Origin: a virus
Virus genome (UHGV): UHGV-1378516
Reading direction: 5' to 3' (one strand)
DNA length: 64,000 nucleotides
Both the position numbers and the translations under genes were made by a program. Below, piece by piece: positions 3,638 to 47,968 of the stretch. The notes under the pieces are model-generated. The model searched no databases and was not told the DNA's origin. It saw only the letters and a program-made list of their open reading frames with translations. Positions within the stretch are counted from its first letter, which is position 1. Each line of letters begins with the position of its first letter.

Positions 3638-3940
3638 TTAAGCTCCTACATATTCATATGTGTAAAGGTTTCTTGTACTTGTTGATGCAGTCCCTGTCTC
3701 AGACTTAATGAGGTTCCAGCCATTAGCCACTAAATCTGGTTGCTCAGTTGCATATGAGCGAACTTCACCAACAGTGCCGTTTACTTTATTCAGCAGGTAG
3801 TTGATAATATAGTTGAACCACTGTCTACCCATAGGCTCACCCTTTAAAAGACCTGTCTCTTGAACTTCCGGTGGTGGTAAAACTTTTAACTGATTACCAT
3901 CAGTATCTACTTCGTTTGTAGACCAATTTAGAACTGCCAT
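3638..3940 (-). CDS. hypothetical protein (tail fibre/baseplate associated by position)
   Basis: 100 aa ORF tightly packed between baseplate and fibre genes. Confidence 0.45.
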
Positions 3941-4794
3941 TAAGAATTTCCTTCTTGTTGTGATTTATCTTTTCTGCCTTTGACAATTTGTGCAACCTCA
4001 GCCATAACTCCGTATGCACCACCTGCAATAGCTTCTTTACCAACGATGAAATAACCACTCTTATTAGACCTATCTACAGTCATATAATCATCGCTCTGTA
4101 AGTTTGCTGTTCTGTCAACCTTAAAGTAACCATCAATAACACCAGCATCTGCAAGGCTACCTACTAAGTTGGACTCCAGAGAGCCACCAGTGTTATTTGT
4201 TACCAGACCTCTGTTAGCATCAGTTACAAACCAGTTCTCTTTATCATCAACAATAGCAAGTGATGAATCAGCAACCTCTACAGGTGTCCAAGCGGTCCCA
4301 TTTAAAGTAACATCTCTTAAGATAACAGCGGAACCAGTGGTTGTTGCAGAAATCTTTGACAGTGTATATGCAGCATCAAGAACGCTTTTTCTAGTATTAA
4401 TACGGATAACGATACCACCAGTCTTAGGAGTAATATGCTCAAAAATCTGAGAGAAAGTTGCACCATACAATGTCATAATTGCTTTTTGCAAGAATGTTGG
4501 AGTAGTGTCAGAACGTCTTAAGAAGATTTGGATATAAAGCATAGCTCTATATGTTTCATCATCAGCACCTAAAGGTCTAGGAACTTTAATCAGTGAGCCA
4601 ATATTATCAAGTTGTTGACCTACTGACGTCCTAATATTTCTCTCTGTGTGCATCTGCCAGCAAACATCTTCTAAGGTTTGTAACTCATCAGTGATTGCTT
4701 TCAAGATGCTTGTATAGATAAACTTATCTTTAAACTGTGTTACAGTCCTTTCATCAAGTGTTTTATAATAAACACTATCAATCTTTTCAAACAT
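3940..4794 (-). CDS. putative baseplate protein (gpI/gp48-like by position)
   Basis: 284 aa, directly downstream of baseplate J-like gene; assignment by synteny only. Confidence 0.4.
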
Positions 4795-4796
4795 TA

Positions 4797-6265
4797 TTAC
4801 TCCTTAGTGATGGTATACTGGCTACTTTCCCAAACAGTATATTGGTCACCGTCAACAGTAATTCTTGCTGTAGTATATTGTCCGTCACTAGGTGGAACTG
4901 ATTGGCTGTTTGATAATGCTACTTTCACCTCATTAATCTCAATACCTTTGATTACGTCATAGATGTACCCATAAATTCTGTTAGGGATAACATCATTACC
5001 AACCTTAAGAGTTCTTCCGTAGGCGTTAATACCTTGCACAATACTATCTCTGATATCTTCTTCAGGGATTGTCAAACTTTCTTCGTCATATAATGAGTAA
5101 GACACCTTAACAAATGCGTATTTTGGTGTTGGTCTGCTAAAATAGATATTATGTGCCAGACCACCTAAATCATAGGCTGTACCAAAAATTGAGCCATAAG
5201 CCCTGATACCAGCAGGTTTTGTATCCCAGATTGCTTGAGCAACATTATCATTTTGACCACCAACTACAACAATCTTAAAAGACTTTGGTGGAAGACCTTC
5301 TGAGTTTGTCTCTTCAGTATCATTTTCAACACCTGAAGCATCTGAGACACCTTGAACTCTTTTAACAGCAGCCACAATTGCATCCAAAGTCCCTACACCA
5401 GTAACTGCTAAGGATTCTAAATATCTCTGTCTAAGTTCTGTGTCAGTTTCTTCGTTTCTACCAGTTGTTAAGTCATACCTGTTATAAATACTGTCAAGAC
5501 CATCAACAGTTGTCTCAATCTCAATAAGCGTACCAGCCAAAGCAGGGGTAGCACCAACCTCTTCAGCTACTACATCTGAAATAGTTGTAATCTTTGTAAA
5601 GGGCAGAAACGTTGTTGCAGTGACAACCATAGGGTTTGTTCTTGCAATGATATCACCTTCGTCTTTATAGACTCTTAATGCGGCTCCATCATTAATGACT
5701 TCTGCTTTTGCTACAATACCACCATTAATAGCTTCTGCTAATTTTGTTAGCAGCGTAGTGATTGTGTCTAATGAGGTTGGTTTATATGAGAAAATGACGT
5801 TATCAATAATAATAACATAATCTGCATCAGTTCGTAAAGAGTTAACTTCAAGTGTAGCTTCAACACAATATGATGGAGTAAGGGTAATGTTATTAACTGG
5901 ATAAAAGATGTTTCCGGCAGTACTTCTTAATCTTGTTGTTGAAGGAATGGTAGCACCAGTAGTTCCAGTAAACTCAACTTGACCTCTTGTTGCCTGAGCA
6001 ACATATCTGTATACAGCATTCAAAGCTGTAATATCATCAAGGTTAAATCCTTCAGCCTTGTCAATTGTCCCGCCGTCATAGATTTCTGATAGAATCTCAT
6101 GTGTATCTGCTAAAGACCTTGCAATTGAAGCTAGGAAGAGACCTAATTGACTGTCTTCAGAGACGTCAAGGTTTGGTGAAATATCTCTAAGAAGTCTTGA
6201 TTTGATATTATCAAAAATTTCCTGATATCTTAGAGTTTGTAATCCTGTTGTAGTTAATCCTGCCA

Positions 6266-6266: not shown

Positions 6267-11650
<5,384 letters not shown>

Positions 11651-39248: not shown

Positions 39249-39259
39249 AATATCTTAAG

Positions 39260-39290
39260 AGCCCCCTTAATTGGGGGCTTTTTAATTTTT
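39260..39290 (+). terminator. rho-independent terminator ending plus-strand block
   Basis: AGCCCCC-ttaatt-GGGGGCT + TTTTTAATTTTT. Confidence 0.7.
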
Positions 39291-40876
39291 ATAAAATTTT
39301 ATCGGTTGTTCCAACCTCTGGGTCACCATCATATGTGAATAAAATATCTATCCTTCTTAACAACCTTCTTAATCTTACTCTCTATATAGTTATATAGTAC
39401 TATATAGTATCTTAGTAACTATCTAGTGGTCTTAATAGCCCTCTGTATAACCCTTCTAAATAGCCCTCTAAACACTCTTCTAACAAGCCTTCTTAACAAC
39501 CTATACAATCACCTTAACCATCTCTCTATACCCTCTTAGAAGCCCCTATACACCTCTTAATCTCTAGGTTAGCTATGATACCCTCTATAGGTGTTCACTA
39601 GGTATTACTAAGCCTCTATATAGACTGTTTTAACAAACTTAACAGGAATATCTTCACAGACCTTATCTCACAAGGTCTAACACGGTACTAACAAGGTATC
39701 TTATAAGCCTGTTTCTACCTGTATTTTTAAAAGACTGTCTAGGTAATTATTCAGATTTTTAAAATTTTTATAAAATAGGACTATCAAGTCATTTTTTAGG
39801 GTCTTTGAAGGAACTCAAAAATATCTGTAGGAGATGTATATCTGCTTGGTAGCCCTTAACAGCTCCCTTACAAGTACTTTGCAAAATTTTAAAATATCCT
39901 TAACAATCTCTTAACAGTTCTCACATCTTCTTAACAACTCTTCAAAGGTCTTAACAGTTTCTTAACAGAACTAACAAGGGCTTAACAGTTTTCTAACAAG
40001 TGCTGAATAGGTTTTACAGAATCTTAACAGATGACTAACAAGAGCTAACAAGTTAATTTTAAAGAGTTATTTTGTTAGGGATTGGTAACAATACCAATTA
40101 GATAACTAACAAGTTCCTAATAAGTGTTTAATCTTTTTAACAAGCTATTAACATGGTCACTATCTCTTTTCTTATCGTTCCCTTTCTCTCTTAGTGATTC
40201 TCTAAACATACCTTTTAAAAACTCTCTATAGCTCCTTGTAAGCTCTTTTAAATCTCTTCCTAGTATCTACCCATCAACTGTATGGATAGCTCTTTATAGG
40301 GCTTTACAGGAGCTTTTAAGGCTATGTCAAAGACTCTTACAAGGCTTTTACGTGGTCTTAACAGAGATTTAACAAGGGGCTAACAAGTCTCTAACAAGAA
40401 TAACTATGTAGGGATTGTTAAGAAATTGTTAAGAAAATGTTAAGGGGGCTAGCATTTACGTAACTTTATAGCCTTTTTTACGTTACTTTGAAGTAACTTT
40501 ATAGCCCCTATAACATGCTTTTTAGTGACTATCAAGGGGATTGTTTAGTTATTCACAAGATACTAGCCAGCCTATAAACTTTCACCCTTATAAGATTCTT
40601 TTAAGGCTCTGGGAAGCTCTATAAAGGGCTTTTTAGAGTGGGTTAATATGATTGCTTAAGTTAGGTTGATAAGGCTGTTATAGAGCTTTATAGAGCGTTT
40701 TAGTGGTTGCCCTTCCCTTTCGGATTATGGGCTTGTATTTAAGTTGATTTGATAAAAGGTTATAGAGTAGACTATAGAGTTATTGCTTTTAAGGTATGGG
40801 ATAGATTCTATCGAATTAGTGGGATAGATTCTGGGAAGGAAAGGAAAGGGTTTTAATAGAGGCTATTACATAGACG
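39291..40876. repeat. ORF-free repeat-dense region (candidate origin/iteron or regulatory hub)
   Basis: No ORF of 60 aa or more on either strand; over 30 copies of YTAACAR heptamers with orientation flip near 40400; CTCTATA/TATATAG family; short direct repeats. Confidence 0.6.
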
Positions 40877-40899
40877 TAAAAAGCCCCATTTAAGGGGCT
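40877..40899 (-). terminator. rho-independent terminator ending minus-strand small-gene cluster
   Basis: Minus-sense AGCCCCU-uaaau-GGGGCU + U5. Confidence 0.6.
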
Positions 40900-40937
40900 G
40901 TAAAGGTATCTGGGGCTATTTAGCCCCGTTGCGTCGA

Positions 40938-43546: not shown

Positions 43547-43640
43547 TTTAGAATCTCCTAGTTTAAGGATTTTATTTAGTGGGGAAGGTCATTCCCTCCC
43601 CGTTGATGTGTAATTTAATCTATCTAAAAAACAGTGTCAA
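43547..43640 (-). promoter_or_regulatory. type-1 promoter/5' stem-loop cassette, copy 5
   Basis: Near-identical to copy 4; ATG 43546. Confidence 0.65.
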
Positions 43641-44638: not shown

Positions 44639-44728
44639 TTTTAAGTTCTCCAATTTAGGATTTAGTGGTAAAGCTCTTTATCTGGGGCTTACTTTATCGA
44701 ACTATAAGCCCCCTGTAAAGTACTTTAT
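44639..44728 (-). promoter_or_regulatory. type-2 cassette with palindromic operators, copy 3
   Basis: Same architecture; ATG 44638. Confidence 0.6.
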
Positions 44729-45105
44729 TTAATTTTGAAGATTGTTACATAACCATCACTCCCGATGATTTGTGATACTCCAGCCTTTTCTACTTGATAG
44801 CCCATATTTTCAAGATGATAAATAGCATCATCATAACCATATGCGCCACCCTGATAACGTCTCTTATCACATCTTATCAGGTTTTTTCCACGTCCAGCAA
44901 GTGCATGGAGAATGGTTTTTTCACTTGAAAGAGTGCCATCTAACATGGTTGCCGTGTAATGGTTGATTTTATTCCCGTTGATATCATACTTGAAATTGAA
45001 CGAGTGAACAACAATCACATTACCTTTGAAATTTTCATCAAGTGACTTCTCCAGTACGCTACGAAAGTTGTCTTTGTTGATGAATTTAGGCGCACGATAT
45101 TTCAT
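44725..45105 (-). CDS. hypothetical protein (first gene of cassette cluster)
   Basis: 126 aa. Confidence 0.55.
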   Translation of the reverse strand: MKYRAPKFINKDNFRSVLEKSLDENFKGNVIVVHSFNFKYDINGNKINHYTATMLDGTLSSEKTILHALAGRGKNLIRCDKRRYQGGAYGYDDAIYHLENMGYQVEKAGVSQIIGSDGYVTIFKIK

Positions 45106-45200
45106 TTTCTGAATCTCCTAGTTTAAGGACTTTATTTAGTGTGGAAGGTCATTCCCTCCCCGTTGATGCAAATACTAGATAACCACGTTCAAAGAGTCAA
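45106..45200 (-). promoter_or_regulatory. type-1 promoter/5' stem-loop cassette, copy 6
   Basis: TTGACT-17-TAGTAT; same stem-loop and SD; ATG 45105. Confidence 0.65.
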
Positions 45201-45319
45201 GAAAAATTTTAAAAATATTTTTGACAAAACTGTAATGAAACGGGCGCACACGACTACCACAAAACAGAACACAAATCAAGAATTATTTTTCAATCCGCTA
45301 CAAATTTTTCCCTTGACTT

Positions 45320-45352
45320 TTGGGGAGAGGGGGAGTAAGAGGGGGAGAGGGG
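45320..45352 (+). other. G-run tract with G-quadruplex potential
   Basis: GGGGAGAGGGGGAGTAAGAGGGGGAGAGGGG: four runs of four or more G in an AT-rich genome. Confidence 0.45.
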
Positions 45353-45379
45353 TTGGTCTGGCTCTCTATAAAAACCTAC

Positions 45380-45556
45380 CTGCACGATTCTAAAATGATT
45401 TTTCTTGCCCGACCTGAGCGGGGTCTGCACGTTTTGAAAATGAAAAATCTCTTTGGAGATTACCTGCACAGTTTGAAAATGAATTTCCTCTTTGGAGTTC
45501 AAAATTTCCTCTACAGATTTCTCTATAGAAATATACCTGCACAATTCTGAAATGAA
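45380..45556. repeat. four direct repeats of a 20-bp motif
   Basis: CTGCAC(G/A)NTT(C/T)T(A/G)AAAATGA at about 45380, 45425, 45464, 45537. Confidence 0.6.
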
Positions 45557-45628
45557 AAAGCCCTCCTTACCTGAAAAATTTACCAGATAAGAAAGGCTTA
45601 GTCTATTGTGAATATCCTACGAAGTTTC

Positions 45629-46414
45629 TTAGTTCTTTGCGTCTAAGAAGGTAACTTCTGGCGAAGAGAAAACTGTCTCAATATCCTCATCAGTTCTTGC
45701 ATAGATGTAAGTGTCTGCATCACTGCCAAATGTTACTGCAATCCTGTGATTGCTCTTCGACAGGTGGGTAACTAGAGCGTTACTTAGAGACATCTTTTCA
45801 ACCGGAGGGTTACTTTGATGTATCTTACCTTTTCTTCGTCTGAAGAGGGTAACTGCATTATCCGTGAACACAACTACACCTGCGAAGTATTCTGGTTCAC
45901 AGTAGTTCTTCCAACCTGAGCGTAACTTGTGGTACATCTCTCCTTCATAGACATATAGATAAACATCTACACTCTTCATTGCCTGATTGATGATAACTGT
46001 GACGGCTTGAGGGTCCAACCCACCGATACCTGCACCAATCATAGGTAAACCAACTTTCTTCAACTGATTAACTTCACAGTATCTGTTAAGCTGTTTCAAA
46101 GATGACTCTAAAGCACTGTATCGGGCATCTTTACCAGTCTTAAGCTGAGTGTAAAGGTTAGCTATACGGCCTTGTTTTACACGTGCTACAGAGAAATTAC
46201 CCAGTAAATTTTCACAGGGTTTGTGTCCTATACCACCTGCATATAGATAAACTTCTGTATCGGTCTCATATGCTTTTGGGTAAAGTTTAGAAATCTTGTC
46301 AGCGATACCTGCACCCATTAAATTCATACAGTTGCAACCGTGACCGATGATGTCAAACTTACCTTTATCAAATGCGGAAAAGATATCACCGTTGATAATT
46401 TTTACAATACCCAT
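45629..46414 (-). CDS. macro domain-containing protein (ADP-ribose binding/processing family) with C-terminal extension
   Basis: 261 aa; N-terminal ..IINGDIF..DIIGHGCNCMNLMGAGIA.. matches macro-domain core in register. Confidence 0.55.
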   Translation of the reverse strand: MGIVKIINGDIFSAFDKGKFDIIGHGCNCMNLMGAGIADKISKLYPKAYETDTEVYLYAGGIGHKPCENLLGNFSVARVKQGRIANLYTQLKTGKDARYSALESSLKQLNRYCEVNQLKKVGLPMIGAGIGGLDPQAVTVIINQAMKSVDVYLYVYEGEMYHKLRSGWKNYCEPEYFAGVVVFTDNAVTLFRRRKGKIHQSNPPVEKMSLSNALVTHLSKSNHRIAVTFGSDADTYIYARTDEDIETVFSSPEVTFLDAKN

Positions 46415-47916: not shown

Positions 47917-47935
47917 TTAACAATCTCCTGAAATG

Positions 47936-47956
47936 AAAAAGGCTCCCGAAGGAGCC
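47936..47956 (-). terminator. rho-independent terminator
   Basis: Minus-sense GGCUCC-UUCG-GGAGCC + U5. Confidence 0.65.
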
Positions 47957-47968
47957 TGTATCTTAACC

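Follow-up and report, generated by a model that had tools for sequence, protein, structure and literature searches.

A conserved two-part repeat array between the early operon and the small-ORF cassettes of Felix O1-like phages

The window analysed here, a stretch of 64,000 nucleotides, is from a Felix O1-like phage (Felixounavirus), in which the 523-bp untranslated gap between the macro-domain gene and the first small-ORF cassette gene holds four copies of a two-part motif of around 24 bases. The motif reads TCATTTy-N6-GTGCA(GG)TAR in the sense of transcription. The array is the most strongly conserved non-coding sequence among those compared across lineages around the early region, and its motif has, according to the alignments, changed very little throughout the subfamily of Felix O1-related phages (Ounavirinae). 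We propose, tentatively and with somewhat less than even confidence, that the repeats are DNA sites for a putative sequence-specific factor that would control transcription at the boundary between the early operon and the cassettes.

Four copies of a two-part motif at a single locus

The early genes of the window lie on the − strand, and the repeat copies read CTGCAC..AAATGA on the + strand and TCATTTYMRAANNGTGCAG on the − strand. Along the direction of transcription, the gap runs from an intrinsic terminator through the four repeats and a C-rich tract to the promoters (Table 1), with the array placed exactly where the conserved early operon (rIIA ... macro) gives way to the variable or hypervariable small-ORF cassettes. 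An earlier note on this DNA had placed a G-tract upstream of the repeats; because all flanking genes are on the − strand, the sense order is instead repeats and then tract, which reads as C-rich on that strand. The coordinates it gave for the repeats and the tract stand, whereas its description of the copies as tandem does not, as they are dispersed direct repeats. TRF reported no tandem array at the locus.

Table 1 Features of the gap and its flanking genes, with positions in the window
Feature	Position	Strand	Basis or detail
Macro-domain gene	45629-46414	−	
Rho-independent terminator closing the early operon (rIIA ... macro)	45558..45599	−	Predicted by scan
Repeat copy 1, core TCATTTCAGAATTGTGCAG	45530..45561 (core 45537-45555)	−	Pattern and profile HMM
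Repeat copy 2, core TCATTTTCAAACTGTGCAG	45461..45487 (core 45464-45482)	−	Pattern, profile HMM and alignment
Repeat copy 3, core TCATTTTCAAAACGTGCAG	45424..45449 (core 45425-45443)	−	Pattern, profile HMM and alignment
Repeat copy 4, core TCATTTTAGAATCGTGCAG	45376..45404 (core 45380-45398)	−	Pattern and profile HMM
Polypurine/polypyrimidine tract GGGGAGAGGGGGAGTAAGAGGGGGAGAGGGG	45322-45352	G-rich on +, C-rich on −	Canonical G4 motif
Promoter-like module AAAAGTCAAG..GAAAAATTTGTAGCGGATTGAAAAATAATTCTTGATT	45253..45321	−	Alignment; −35-like TTGATT at 45274-45279
Sigma-70 promoter of the first small-ORF cassette, TTGACT-17-TAGTAT	45172..45200	−	Scan; A/T-rich upstream element
First small-ORF cassette gene	44725-45105	−	

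The four cores, each of about 19–24 bp, fit within 176 bp and have start-to-start spacings of 45, 39 and 73 bp. Units of one array are 62–82% identical over 34 nt and unevenly spaced, by 39–73 nt. A pattern search of the 64 kb returned these 4 matches against 0.18 expected, with none of 100 shuffled sequences reaching 4, and a profile HMM of the unit recovered the same four sites (E ≤ 1.4e-6; next best match, E = 2.1). Neither ahead of gene starts nor anywhere else in the window did the pattern search find the motif again, and related contigs of around 87 kb carry one array locus each; the suggestion that the repeats are middle-promoter boxes set before genes is at odds with a motif found at a single locus here and once per related genome.

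The earlier note had also held that the repeats do not fit ordinary sigma-70 promoters, and this was borne out: in a sigma-70 scan copy 1 alone passed (TTTTCA-17-TATATT, 9/12) and copies 2–4 failed, leaving copy 1 as the only promoter-like one. In most copies TAR follows GTGCA(GG). The hexamer after GTGCAGG in copy 1 keeps a TAnnnT-like form in most sequence variants, a form that is not kept in copies 2–4 of all lineages. Copy 1 is fused to the terminator, whose U-tract (45548-45557) is the 5′ part of the copy, and the left flank of copy 4, GGTCGGGCAAGAAAAATCATTTT, is almost the same in the Erwinia phage phiEa104.

The predicted terminator has a 17-pair stem with three G-U pairs, because of which it folds well on the − strand only, and an 8-nt loop; the records of wV8, ASO1A and KhF2 annotate a terminator at this position, and Mooglevirus and Kolesnikvirus have a hairpin and T-tract in the same place. 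On the far side of the array, the ASO1A record annotates a promoter at the equivalent of the cassette promoter, whose upstream element belongs to the sole strongly A+T-rich stretch of the gap (85% A+T at 45200-45239). The putatively promoter-like module that adjoins the C-rich tract is among the best-conserved stretches of the alignment and is paralogous to the sequence that precedes the cassette promoter; it has no good −10 element and was not called by the promoter scan.

Conservation of the array, the adjoining tract and coding potential

Four lineages, Felixounavirus, Mooglevirus, Kolesnikvirus and the uncultivated relative L103, have the array immediately after the macro-domain gene, across distances at which the macro protein of Kolesnikvirus phiEa104 is 44% identical and the syntenic proteins of L103 are 29–44% identical. 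Mean pairwise identity is 0.99 for TCATTT and 0.98 for GTGCAG, compared to 0.68 for the 7-nt spacer and 0.74 outside the core. In every lineage compared the blocks are exactly 7 nt apart and the array has the same orientation relative to transcription. Relatives carry 3 to 5 copies, and the linkers between them have been homogenised genus by genus. Kolesnikvirus has unit spacings of 37/37/39 nt, and the ancestral repeat unit is put at 36–39 nt. On its 5′ side the motif has a run of A or T (A5 or T5); since these are equal as duplex DNA and not as RNA, the switch favours recognition of DNA. The repeats are real, occur at one locus only and have been retained over long divergence in a constant genomic setting, with conservation concentrated in two blocks and with no conserved RNA fold or open reading frame. 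The idea that they are recognition sites for a factor seems well matched by this behaviour, with blocks 98–99% conserved at a fixed 7-nt spacing in four phage lineages.

Beyond these lineages, Pakpunavirus has the macro gene and neither the gap nor the array. Scans of IMG/VR with a single unit gave chance matches only, among the matches listed, and a two-unit pattern run against 185,579 species genomes retrieved only unrelated tandem repeats from non-enteric bacteria, several with 21-nt periods; none of the enterobacterial genomes had two adjacent units. Separately, there is a switch between GTGCAGGTA and GTGCATAG: the latter, which resembles a DnaA box, is present in Kolesnikvirus and L103, while Felix and Moogle have lost it (GTGCAGGT). 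The L103 array borders on a second repeat field, TTAACA.

The tract downstream of the repeats is less constant. A search for the canonical G4 motif (four runs of at least three G, loops of 1–7 nt) on both strands of the 64 kb matched only the tract, on the + strand, against 0.07 matches expected, confirming the earlier note on the presence of the G-tract and its predicted G4. The tract is also, as read from its sequence, a perfect 14-nt mirror repeat, GGGGAGAGGGGGAG-TAA-GAGGGGGAGAGGGG. Its uniqueness as a G4 motif, this mirror symmetry and the occurrence in Mooglevirus of a motif with four C3+ runs, equivalent to a G4 motif on the other strand, could suit a G4 or H-DNA switch on the template strand that pauses RNA polymerase or primes an R-loop. 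We nevertheless regard such a switch as quite unlikely, and doubt that a G4 is the point of the tract. Felix-like phages have two alleles at this place, and about half of the distinct sequences compared among them carry, instead of the tract, an unrelated allele with no G4 motif. Kolesnikvirus has three C3+ runs only and no canonical G4 motif, and in L103 the sequence after the last repeat has neither C3+ runs nor a canonical G4, nor C-richness with G-poverty.

What persists more widely than the G4 motif is a C-rich, G-poor sense strand, with 27 C and 7 G in the 60 nt from 45370 to 45311 of the window and 17–27 C compared to 0–5 G per 40 nt in the C-rich Felix allele, Mooglevirus and Kolesnikvirus; C-richness is only mild in the other Felix allele (10–12 C compared to 4–5 G per 40 nt). 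A rut site is a C-rich, G-poor, unstructured stretch of nascent RNA. The tract is real but not conserved, and a candidate Rho-loading (rut-like) role appears to fit it better than a G4 does.

Three open reading frames cross the gap (45139..45393, 45290..45544 and 45320..45550), and the earlier note was right to call them probable artefacts: frames are not conserved from one lineage to another, and the Kolesnikvirus spacings are not multiples of three. Felix O1 ORF14, wV8 gp13 and Moogle gp115 likewise appear, on comparison of the genomes, to be annotation artefacts. It is extremely unlikely that the gap encodes a small protein, whether in the sense direction (Felix O1 ORF14 or wV8 gp13) or on the opposite strand (Moogle gp115, Mordin gp14 or the window frame 45320-45550). 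Open frames of 56–68 codons do exist in Felix-like and Moogle-like genomes, with annotations in several records and a positive RT-PCR for ORF14, but the open frame and its strand differ between lineages, and in Kolesnikvirus and L103 the longest open stretch is at most 42 codons. Moreover, no frame can run through units spaced 37/37/39, 73 and 41 nt apart, conservation follows the 6+7+6 blocks and not a codon pattern, no Shine–Dalgarno sequence was seen ahead of candidate starts, and the gap is unannotated in RefSeq Felix O1 and HMD-P8.

Transcription of the gap and possible roles of the array

Published RT-PCR on Felix O1 found a transcript signal spanning repeat 4 and the C-tract, with its maximum at 25 min, in an amplicon of ORF14 whose primers map to 45400-45420 and 45328-45348 of the window; RNA of the upstream macro gene peaked at 5 min. 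Transcriptional silence of the repeat and tract region, which the earlier note had named as a finding that would count against its reading, is therefore not what is seen. The late peak, from RT-PCR that is semi-quantitative and not strand-specific, fits regulated transcription through or from the array, and the signal could instead reflect read-through of the terminator. Whichard et al. described both the temporal control of Felix O1 transcription and the means by which polymerase passes its many terminators as unknown, and reported that Felix O1 apparently has no T4-like proteins that alter the promoter specificity of host RNA polymerase. Our literature search found no paper on these repeats, on a Felixounavirus transcriptome or on an origin.

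In the model that we prefer, one factor, probably encoded by the phage, would bind the four repeats as duplex DNA, reading TCATTT and GTGCA(GG)TAR across 7 nt, or around 13 bp centre to centre, with an A/T tract ahead of each site and an ancestral spacing of around 37 bp. With the factor bound, the four sites (relatives have three to five) would form a nucleoprotein array between the early-operon terminator and the cassette promoters, within the untranslated gap, and would set the fate of transcription there, either through factor-dependent initiation inside the array or by blocking or releasing read-through at middle times, with the C-rich tract downstream perhaps serving as a Rho-loading back-up terminator on sense transcripts. 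We infer recognition at the level of DNA, the existence of the factor and its effect on transcription, and the position of the array between a predicted strong terminator and promoters fits a boundary element. Some features sit less easily with this model. A period of around 37 bp corresponds to 3.5 helical turns, so adjacent sites would lie on opposite faces, an unusual arrangement where binding is cooperative, and a motif found at a single locus is unlike known phage promoter classes. Because the region is transcribed, recognition could also take place on RNA. Pfam searches of ten neighbouring proteins matched only the Macro domain and revealed no candidate binder, and no regulator or Rep-type initiator is annotated in the inspected half of the genome of the related phage HMD-P8.

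A bolder form of the proposal, in which we place little confidence, would make the array a cis-element of the Ounavirinae, acted on by a phage factor at TCATTT-N7-GTGCA(GG)TAG or, equally, expressed as a repeat RNA that serves as an anti-defence decoy. A factor of this kind would use four tandem sites to drive or gate middle-time transcription into the variable cassettes, in effect a MotA-like switch without MotA; a decoy RNA carrying the repeat motif would titrate a host RNA-binding protein or nuclease and would be conserved across the whole phage subfamily.

More generally, the element may act in RNA, as a primary-sequence site repeated for an RNA-binding protein or an RNase, a reading that we consider unlikely. 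The transcript could arise from terminator read-through, from initiation at copy 1 or as antisense RNA, and could function as a processing or decay signal, in antitermination, or as a decoy or sponge like pseudo-ToxI. In its favour, RNA over copy 4 and the C-tract is detected in Felix O1 infection, the ancestral unit of 36–39 nt is similar in length to type III antitoxin repeats (36 nt), and all lineages keep one orientation to transcription; a promoter-like −35/−10 pair in copy 1, with TAnnnT kept in most variants, would place copies 2–4 in a leader RNA. The RNA analyses point the other way. RNAalifold on ten diverse Felix and Moogle arrays found 0 compensatory pairs, at −10 kcal/mol over 209 columns, and neither a conserved fold nor covariation emerged; single-sequence folding gave z = −2.05 on the sense strand with the terminator hairpin included, which is the largest helix in the fold, and z = +1.44 on the antisense strand. 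Rfam searches at permissive thresholds (E ≤ 10; 3 kb and 331 nt) gave chance-level matches only, with no ToxI or CRISPR repeat at the array. Its units, at 62–82% alike, contrast with antitoxin units that differ at one or a few positions and are pseudoknotted, the flank alternates between A5 and U5, the array lies behind a strong predicted terminator, and enterobacterial genomes offer no counterpart with the two-unit pattern.

Iterons of a replication origin or auxiliary site, read by an initiator with two DNA-reading domains, would be a fairly unlikely identity for the repeats; unwinding would then take place in the A/T-rich promoter region, and an R-loop would be stabilised by the G/C tract. 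A set of four to five direct, non-palindromic repeats, each around 22–24 bp with two conserved halves, would suit this, as the WH1 and WH2 domains of Rep proteins read two-halved repeats, and so would the 85% A+T stretch beside the promoters and the TTAACA repeat field that adjoins the L103 array. However, the DnaA box TTATNCACA, allowing at most 1 mismatch, occurs once in 45100-45640 against 0.7 expected, and outside the array, and a repeat search found no family of repeated 13-mers that could form a DNA unwinding element. Plasmid iterons have a period of around 22 bp, compared to 37 bp here; the helicase-loader gene of HMD-P8 is around 23 kb from the array, no Rep-type initiator is annotated in the half of that genome inspected, and a 1.7-kb TGTTAAG-rich region is a better candidate for an origin. 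GC skew does not switch at the array, although skew follows the direction of transcription in the window and so says little about an origin. The iteron suggestion of the earlier note is accordingly weakened by the want of DnaA boxes and of a Rep-type initiator in that half, and keeps some plausibility. Very unlikely, finally, is that the repeats are functionless, decaying copies of a terminator tail (the U-tract and downstream bases) spread by slippage or cassette shuffling. Copy 1 does have TTTTTCATTTCAG in common with the tail of the terminator at 47928-47957, linkers are homogenised per genus, as concerted evolution of repeats would give, and copy number ranges from 3 to 5, but the cores are 98–99% conserved while their own spacer and flanks drift, and persist where neighbouring proteins are only 29–44% identical; neutral remnants would be lost at such divergence.

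Two further sets of candidates were rejected. A genome terminus, a pac site or a T5-like injection stop was set aside with reference to UAB_Phi87, a phage with mapped terminal repeats of 608 bp: the start of its record, presumably the physical genome end, lies in the tRNA cluster around 20 kb from the array. Informal comparison by eye with consensus sequences found no fit to all copies and lineages for sites of IHF, Fis, CRP, Fur, sigma-54 or sigma-E, nor for the marbox, NtrC, DnaA, ops, Chi or type I restriction sites.

Felix O1 has long served in phage typing and biocontrol, and phages related to it are in wide use against Salmonella, E. coli and Erwinia. The array offers a 24-bp bait with which to find the putative regulator by pull-down and mutation, and it corrects the annotation of Felix O1 ORF14, wV8 gp13, Moogle gp115 and their equivalents, several records having called the array a protein gene. 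If the repeats instead act in RNA or as iterons, they would still be a new phage-wide element.

Comparison with known systems

Like the iterons of lambda ori, F ori2 and RK2 oriV, the repeats are direct, non-palindromic, around 20 bp long and gathered in one non-coding region, and they are two-halved, as would suit a monomer with two DNA-reading domains, with an A/T-rich region and promoters near by. Unlike iterons, the array has no DnaA boxes, no repeated 13-mers and no adjacent initiator gene, and its period is around 37 bp.

T4 middle promoters combine a MotA box at −30 with a −10 element, are used through sigma appropriation, and have their boxes dispersed ahead of dozens of genes. The array resembles them in having the box TCATTT 12–14 bp upstream of a hexamer that starts with TA (TAG or TAA), in the lack of a sigma-70 −35 element and in RNA over the region that peaks at a middle time point. 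It differs in that the motif is at a single locus, an invariant GTGCA block fills the spacer, and copies 2–4 do not keep the last T of the −10 hexamer.

With type III antitoxin arrays and pseudo-ToxI, the array has in common direct repeats of around 36–39 nt in variable number, in a non-coding gap of a lytic myovirus. ToxI and pseudo-ToxI units differ at one or a few positions and are pseudoknotted, and type III antitoxin loci run promoter, repeats, terminator, toxin. Here the order is terminator, repeats, promoter, with no toxin gene and no host counterpart found, and the units are only 62–82% alike, with no covariation and no Rfam match to ToxI.

The C-rich tract resembles rut sites in composition, with 27 C to 7 G in 60 nt, and in its place after an intrinsic terminator and before the next promoters, a likeness that is weak in the alternative Felix allele (10–12 C to 4–5 G per 40 nt). 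Finally, the array shares with the 41-nt repeats of PAK_P1-like phages and with DR_1 to DR_9 of wV8 an intergenic position, conservation and the early region of Felix O1-related myoviruses. There, each small gene has one of the dispersed repeats in front of it as a sigma-70 promoter (TTGACA-N17-TAgAAT), whereas the array is without that consensus, is clustered and lies upstream of the first cassette.

Repeat copies behind the macro gene

The earlier note had described four tandem repeat copies between the macro-domain gene (macro gene) and the first cassette and proposed a genome search for their motif. In that search the pattern TCATTTYMRAANNGTGCAG (minus strand) gave 4 matches in the 64-kb window against 0.18 expected, with no match outside the array, and a looser pattern added only two one-mismatch chance matches. 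A profile HMM of the repeat unit, trained on 50 distinct units, recovered the four copies at E <= 1.4e-6, with the next best match in the window at E = 2.1, which bears out the copies and confines the motif to a single locus. The copies are dispersed rather than head-to-tail (start-to-start distances of 45, 39 and 73 bp) and TRF reported no tandem array at the locus, so the word tandem does not apply. The 3' repeat block GTGCAGGTA has 5 matches against 0.5 expected, three in the array and two within the macro gene (46027-46035 and 46306-46314, minus strand), where it encodes both Gly-Ala-Gly-Ile motifs, probably as a coincidence of codon choice.

The genes flanking the array are all on the minus strand, and the biology is therefore to be read on that strand, which also carries 26 tRNA genes in the window. 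The 523-bp gap between the macro gene and the first small-ORF cassette (45106-45628) then opens with an intrinsic terminator, whose three G-U pairs allow good folding in the sense RNA only and whose U-tract TTTTTCATTT doubles as the 5' half of copy 1. In this order the C-rich tract comes after the copies, and does not precede them as had been noted. The terminator and the cassette promoter have been annotated at identical places by other groups.

Features of the gap and its flanking genes, in transcription order
Feature	Coordinates	Strand	Remarks
Macro gene	45629-46414	-	Pfam Macro; stop at 45629
Intrinsic terminator	45599-45558	-	17-pair stem including three G-U pairs; 3' of macro gene
Repeat copy 1	45537-45555	-	Direct repeat; copies 1 to 4 run from 45555 down to 45380, directly after terminator
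Repeat copy 2	45464-45482	-	Direct repeat
Repeat copy 3	45425-45443	-	Direct repeat
Repeat copy 4	45380-45398	-	Direct repeat
C-rich tract	45322-45352	- (sense)	After copy 4; 27 C against 7 G over the 60 nt 45370-45311
Promoter-like module AAAAGTCAAG..AAAAATAATTCTTGATT		-	After C-rich tract; very well conserved, without a good -10 element
Sigma-70 promoter of first cassette	45200-45172	-	TTGACT-17-TAGTAT
First small-ORF cassette gene	44725-45105	-	Start codon at 45105

A second predicted terminator (47928-47957, minus strand, AGGCTCCTTCGGGAGCCT) has the same tail, TTTTTCATTTCAG, as the one before the array, which suggests a common terminator module. The -35 region of the first-cassette promoter lies within a 30-bp palindrome (45196-45225, GTCAAGAAAAATTTTAAAAATATTTTTGAC), and the upstream module at 45274-45321 has the same GTCAAG ... 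CTTGAT symmetry (GTCAAGCG...TGTTGACT in Erwinia phage phiEa104); a dimeric operator and a bidirectional -35 pair are both possible readings of this arrangement. Cassette starts (45120-45175, 43560-43620 and others) each carry a near-identical promoter and 5' leader, CAACGGGGAGGGAATGACCTTCCmCAC (a potential hairpin) followed by AAACTrGGAGATTCA-ATG. Annotated in phage wV8 as DR_1 to DR_9, these units give rise to spurious plus-strand ORFs starting MWKVIPSPLM or MGKVIPSPLM.

Conservation of the array

The key result of the comparison is the conservation of the array. By blastn, the surrounding 541-bp region matched 258 phage records, 199 of them over at least 80% of the query; the 258 are almost all from Felixounavirus or Mooglevirus (Ounavirinae). 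When 25 distinct Felix-like and Moogle-like sequences were aligned, the four cores formed nearly invariant islands between drifting linkers; across ten diverse arrays, mean pairwise identity was 0.992 for the TCATTT block, 0.983 for the GTGCAG block, 0.678 for the 7-nt spacer between them and 0.739 for all sequence outside the cores. In Felix O1 itself the copies lie at 7989, 8062, 8101 and 8146.

The architecture extends to phiEa104 (Kolesnikvirus). Its macro gene, whose protein shares only 44% identity, is likewise followed by a terminator, by four copies of GGnAnnWWWWWTCATTTTnnAWnnGTGCATAG (spaced 37, 37 and 39 nt), and then by a C-rich tract and a promoter. A scan of IMG/VR with a two-unit pattern turned up, in addition, an uncultivated 88-kb phage, L103 (IMGVR_UViG_3300045988_063805), with no close relative among deposited phages and syntenic proteins 29-44% identical to those of the window; directly after its shorter macro gene it has five copies, arranged 2 + 3 and 36-38 nt apart. 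The more distant Pakpunavirus has the macro gene and neither gap nor array. Copy number ranges from 3 to 5 across lineages, with the extended consensus G-n-WWWW-TCATTTy-maAwty-GTGCA-(GG)-TAR. The units had an ancestral period near 37 nt, and the first Felix/Moogle interval of 73-75 nt looks like two units, one of them decayed.

An unrelated 10-kb viral contig, L094 (IMGVR_UViG_3300018080_002802), with no protein similarity found to the window, has two copies of GGAGGCAATTTAAAAAyCAATCATTTTAACATAGTGCAGTG at 50-nt spacing (reverse complement, ~3890-3990), just 5' of a promoter and gene; their core resembles the Ounavirinae motif (TCATTTT-N6-GTGCAG). GU169904.1, a record named Staphylococcus phage SA1, matched 89% of the 541-bp query at 95.9% identity (128675-129156), which suggests that it includes Felix O1-like sequence.

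The C-rich tract

The tract noted as G-quadruplex-prone is indeed the sole canonical G4 motif in the window, both strands counted (0.07 expected), and a perfect 14-nt mirror repeat, GGGGAGAGGGGGAG-TAA-GAGGGGGAGAGGGG. Comparative data weaken a G4-specific role: roughly one in two of the distinct Felix-like sequences has, in place of the tract and the preceding 20 nt, an unrelated allele (GGTGGGTGCAGGTGGGGATGTCGCCATTTCTCACAAGGCTACCACATCTG) that lacks a G4 motif, only three C3+ runs occur in Kolesnikvirus, and in L103 no C3+ run follows the last copy. What is kept more widely is a C-rich, G-poor sense-strand stretch, which is the look of a Rho-loading (rut) site. From this wider persistence the tract is read as probably a second, Rho-dependent terminator that backs up the intrinsic one before it; any folding into a G4 or H-DNA would be an extra limited to one allele.

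In Felix-like phages the ~55 bp from copy 4 to the conserved AAAAGTCAA block exist as two strikingly different alleles, as a comparison of 45322-45375 with homologous positions in other phages (L004, L008, L011, L045, L053 and others) showed: one is C-rich with the G4 motif, and the other is GGTGGGTGCAGGTGGGGATGTCGCC...CCACATCTG, which holds a one-mismatch Chi-like octamer, GCAGGTGG.

Candidate functions and known systems

Our favoured reading, held tentatively, is that the array is a set of DNA sites for a factor at a transcription boundary. Two invariant blocks at a fixed distance around a free A/T-rich spacer speak for recognition of duplex DNA by a protein, as does the 5' flank, an A/T tract that occurs in both polarities (A5 or T5, equivalent as duplex and opposite as RNA). 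Recognition on DNA is further indicated by the lack of a conserved RNA fold and by the position between a strong terminator and promoters. A protein with two heads would read the unit, as is known for two-domain initiators and two-HTH monomeric regulators, and the array would act where the conserved early operon gives way to the hypervariable cassettes, a role suggested by the genomic context. What binds, on which strand, and whether recognition takes place on DNA or RNA are inferences at this stage.

Action of the motif at the RNA level is unlikely. The sense strand has z = -2.05, the terminator hairpin being part of that fold, and shuffled sequences fold better than the antisense strand; with no Rfam match at the array and no compensatory pair by RNAalifold in its alignment, a known or structurally conserved RNA was rejected. 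Nor is a small protein at all credible. ORFs have been annotated over the array in Felix O1 (ORF14, 8042-8254) and wV8 (gp13), and on the plus strand in Moogle, Mordin, Sf15 and 3HA14, but the open frame and even the coding strand vary between lineages, the units are spaced at distances not divisible by three, the longest open stretch is at most 42 codons in Kolesnikvirus and L103, and the gap is left unannotated both in RefSeq Felix O1 and in HMD-P8, annotated in 2024 style. Such ORFs are artefacts, as had been supposed for the ORFs called in the window. That the copies are non-functional remnants is very improbable.

The factor sites proposed in the earlier note survive as putative sites of two conserved blocks, and not as a dispersed promoter class or classical iterons. 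One array locus per genome rules out the former, dispersed middle-promoter boxes included. Copy 1 is the sole unit resembling a sigma-70 promoter (TTTTCA-17-TATATT), so the reported misfit to sigma-70 holds for copies 2-4; the hexamer after its GTGCAGG varies in the middle, but most sequence variants retain T1, A2 and T6, and transcription may start at this copy in Felix and Moogle. Iterons are rather improbable: DnaA boxes are not enriched over expectation at the array region and its sole strongly A+T-rich stretch belongs to the cassette promoter as its upstream element, against a classical iteron origin. A better origin candidate is the ~1.7 kb at 39250-40930, where plus-strand genes (30-39 kb) and minus-strand early genes converge. 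It has no ORF of at least 50 aa, dense short repeats, several TRF arrays and, within 39356-40433, 15 of the window's 30 YTGTTARG matches (14 expected; the minus strand has the majority). The region resembles a large field of protein-binding sites. The Mooglevirus L093 has the same field ~6 kb downstream of its array. In L103 a run of TTAACA (reverse complement of TGTTAA) directly follows the array (reverse complement, 5600-5790); in Felix-like phages ~5 kb of small-ORF cassettes lie between.

Published RT-PCR shows that the array region is not silent, contrary to one possibility raised earlier. The Felix O1 'ORF14' primers map exactly to 45400-45420 (minus) and 45328-45348 (plus), and their amplicon therefore spans copy 4 and the C-rich tract; by this non-strand-specific, semi-quantitative assay it was scored maximal 25 min after infection, as against 5 min for ORF13 (the macro gene immediately before it) and for cassette ORF16, which hints at separate timing.

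A genome end at the array was rejected, since UAB_Phi87 has mapped 608-bp terminal repeats and its record start, the presumed physical end, is ~20 kb off, within the tRNA cluster. We found no description of these repeats in the literature; the Felix O1 paper lists direct repeats only of at least 24 bp, and the wV8 record marks DR_1 to DR_9 in and around the cassettes, not over the array. A type III antitoxin mimic was also rejected: units are 62-82% alike, the two-unit pattern had no enterobacterial counterpart in 185,579 species genomes, and antitoxin loci run promoter, repeats, terminator, toxin, whereas here the terminator precedes the repeats. PAK_P1-type 41-nt repeats, unlike this array, are cassette promoters. 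Rep proteins (WH1/WH2) read DNA with two domains, and the array offers two blocks at a fixed distance. Arrays of direct recognition sites are a known kind of element; lying outside every defined family compared, this one is classed as a variant of that kind, with a putative function.
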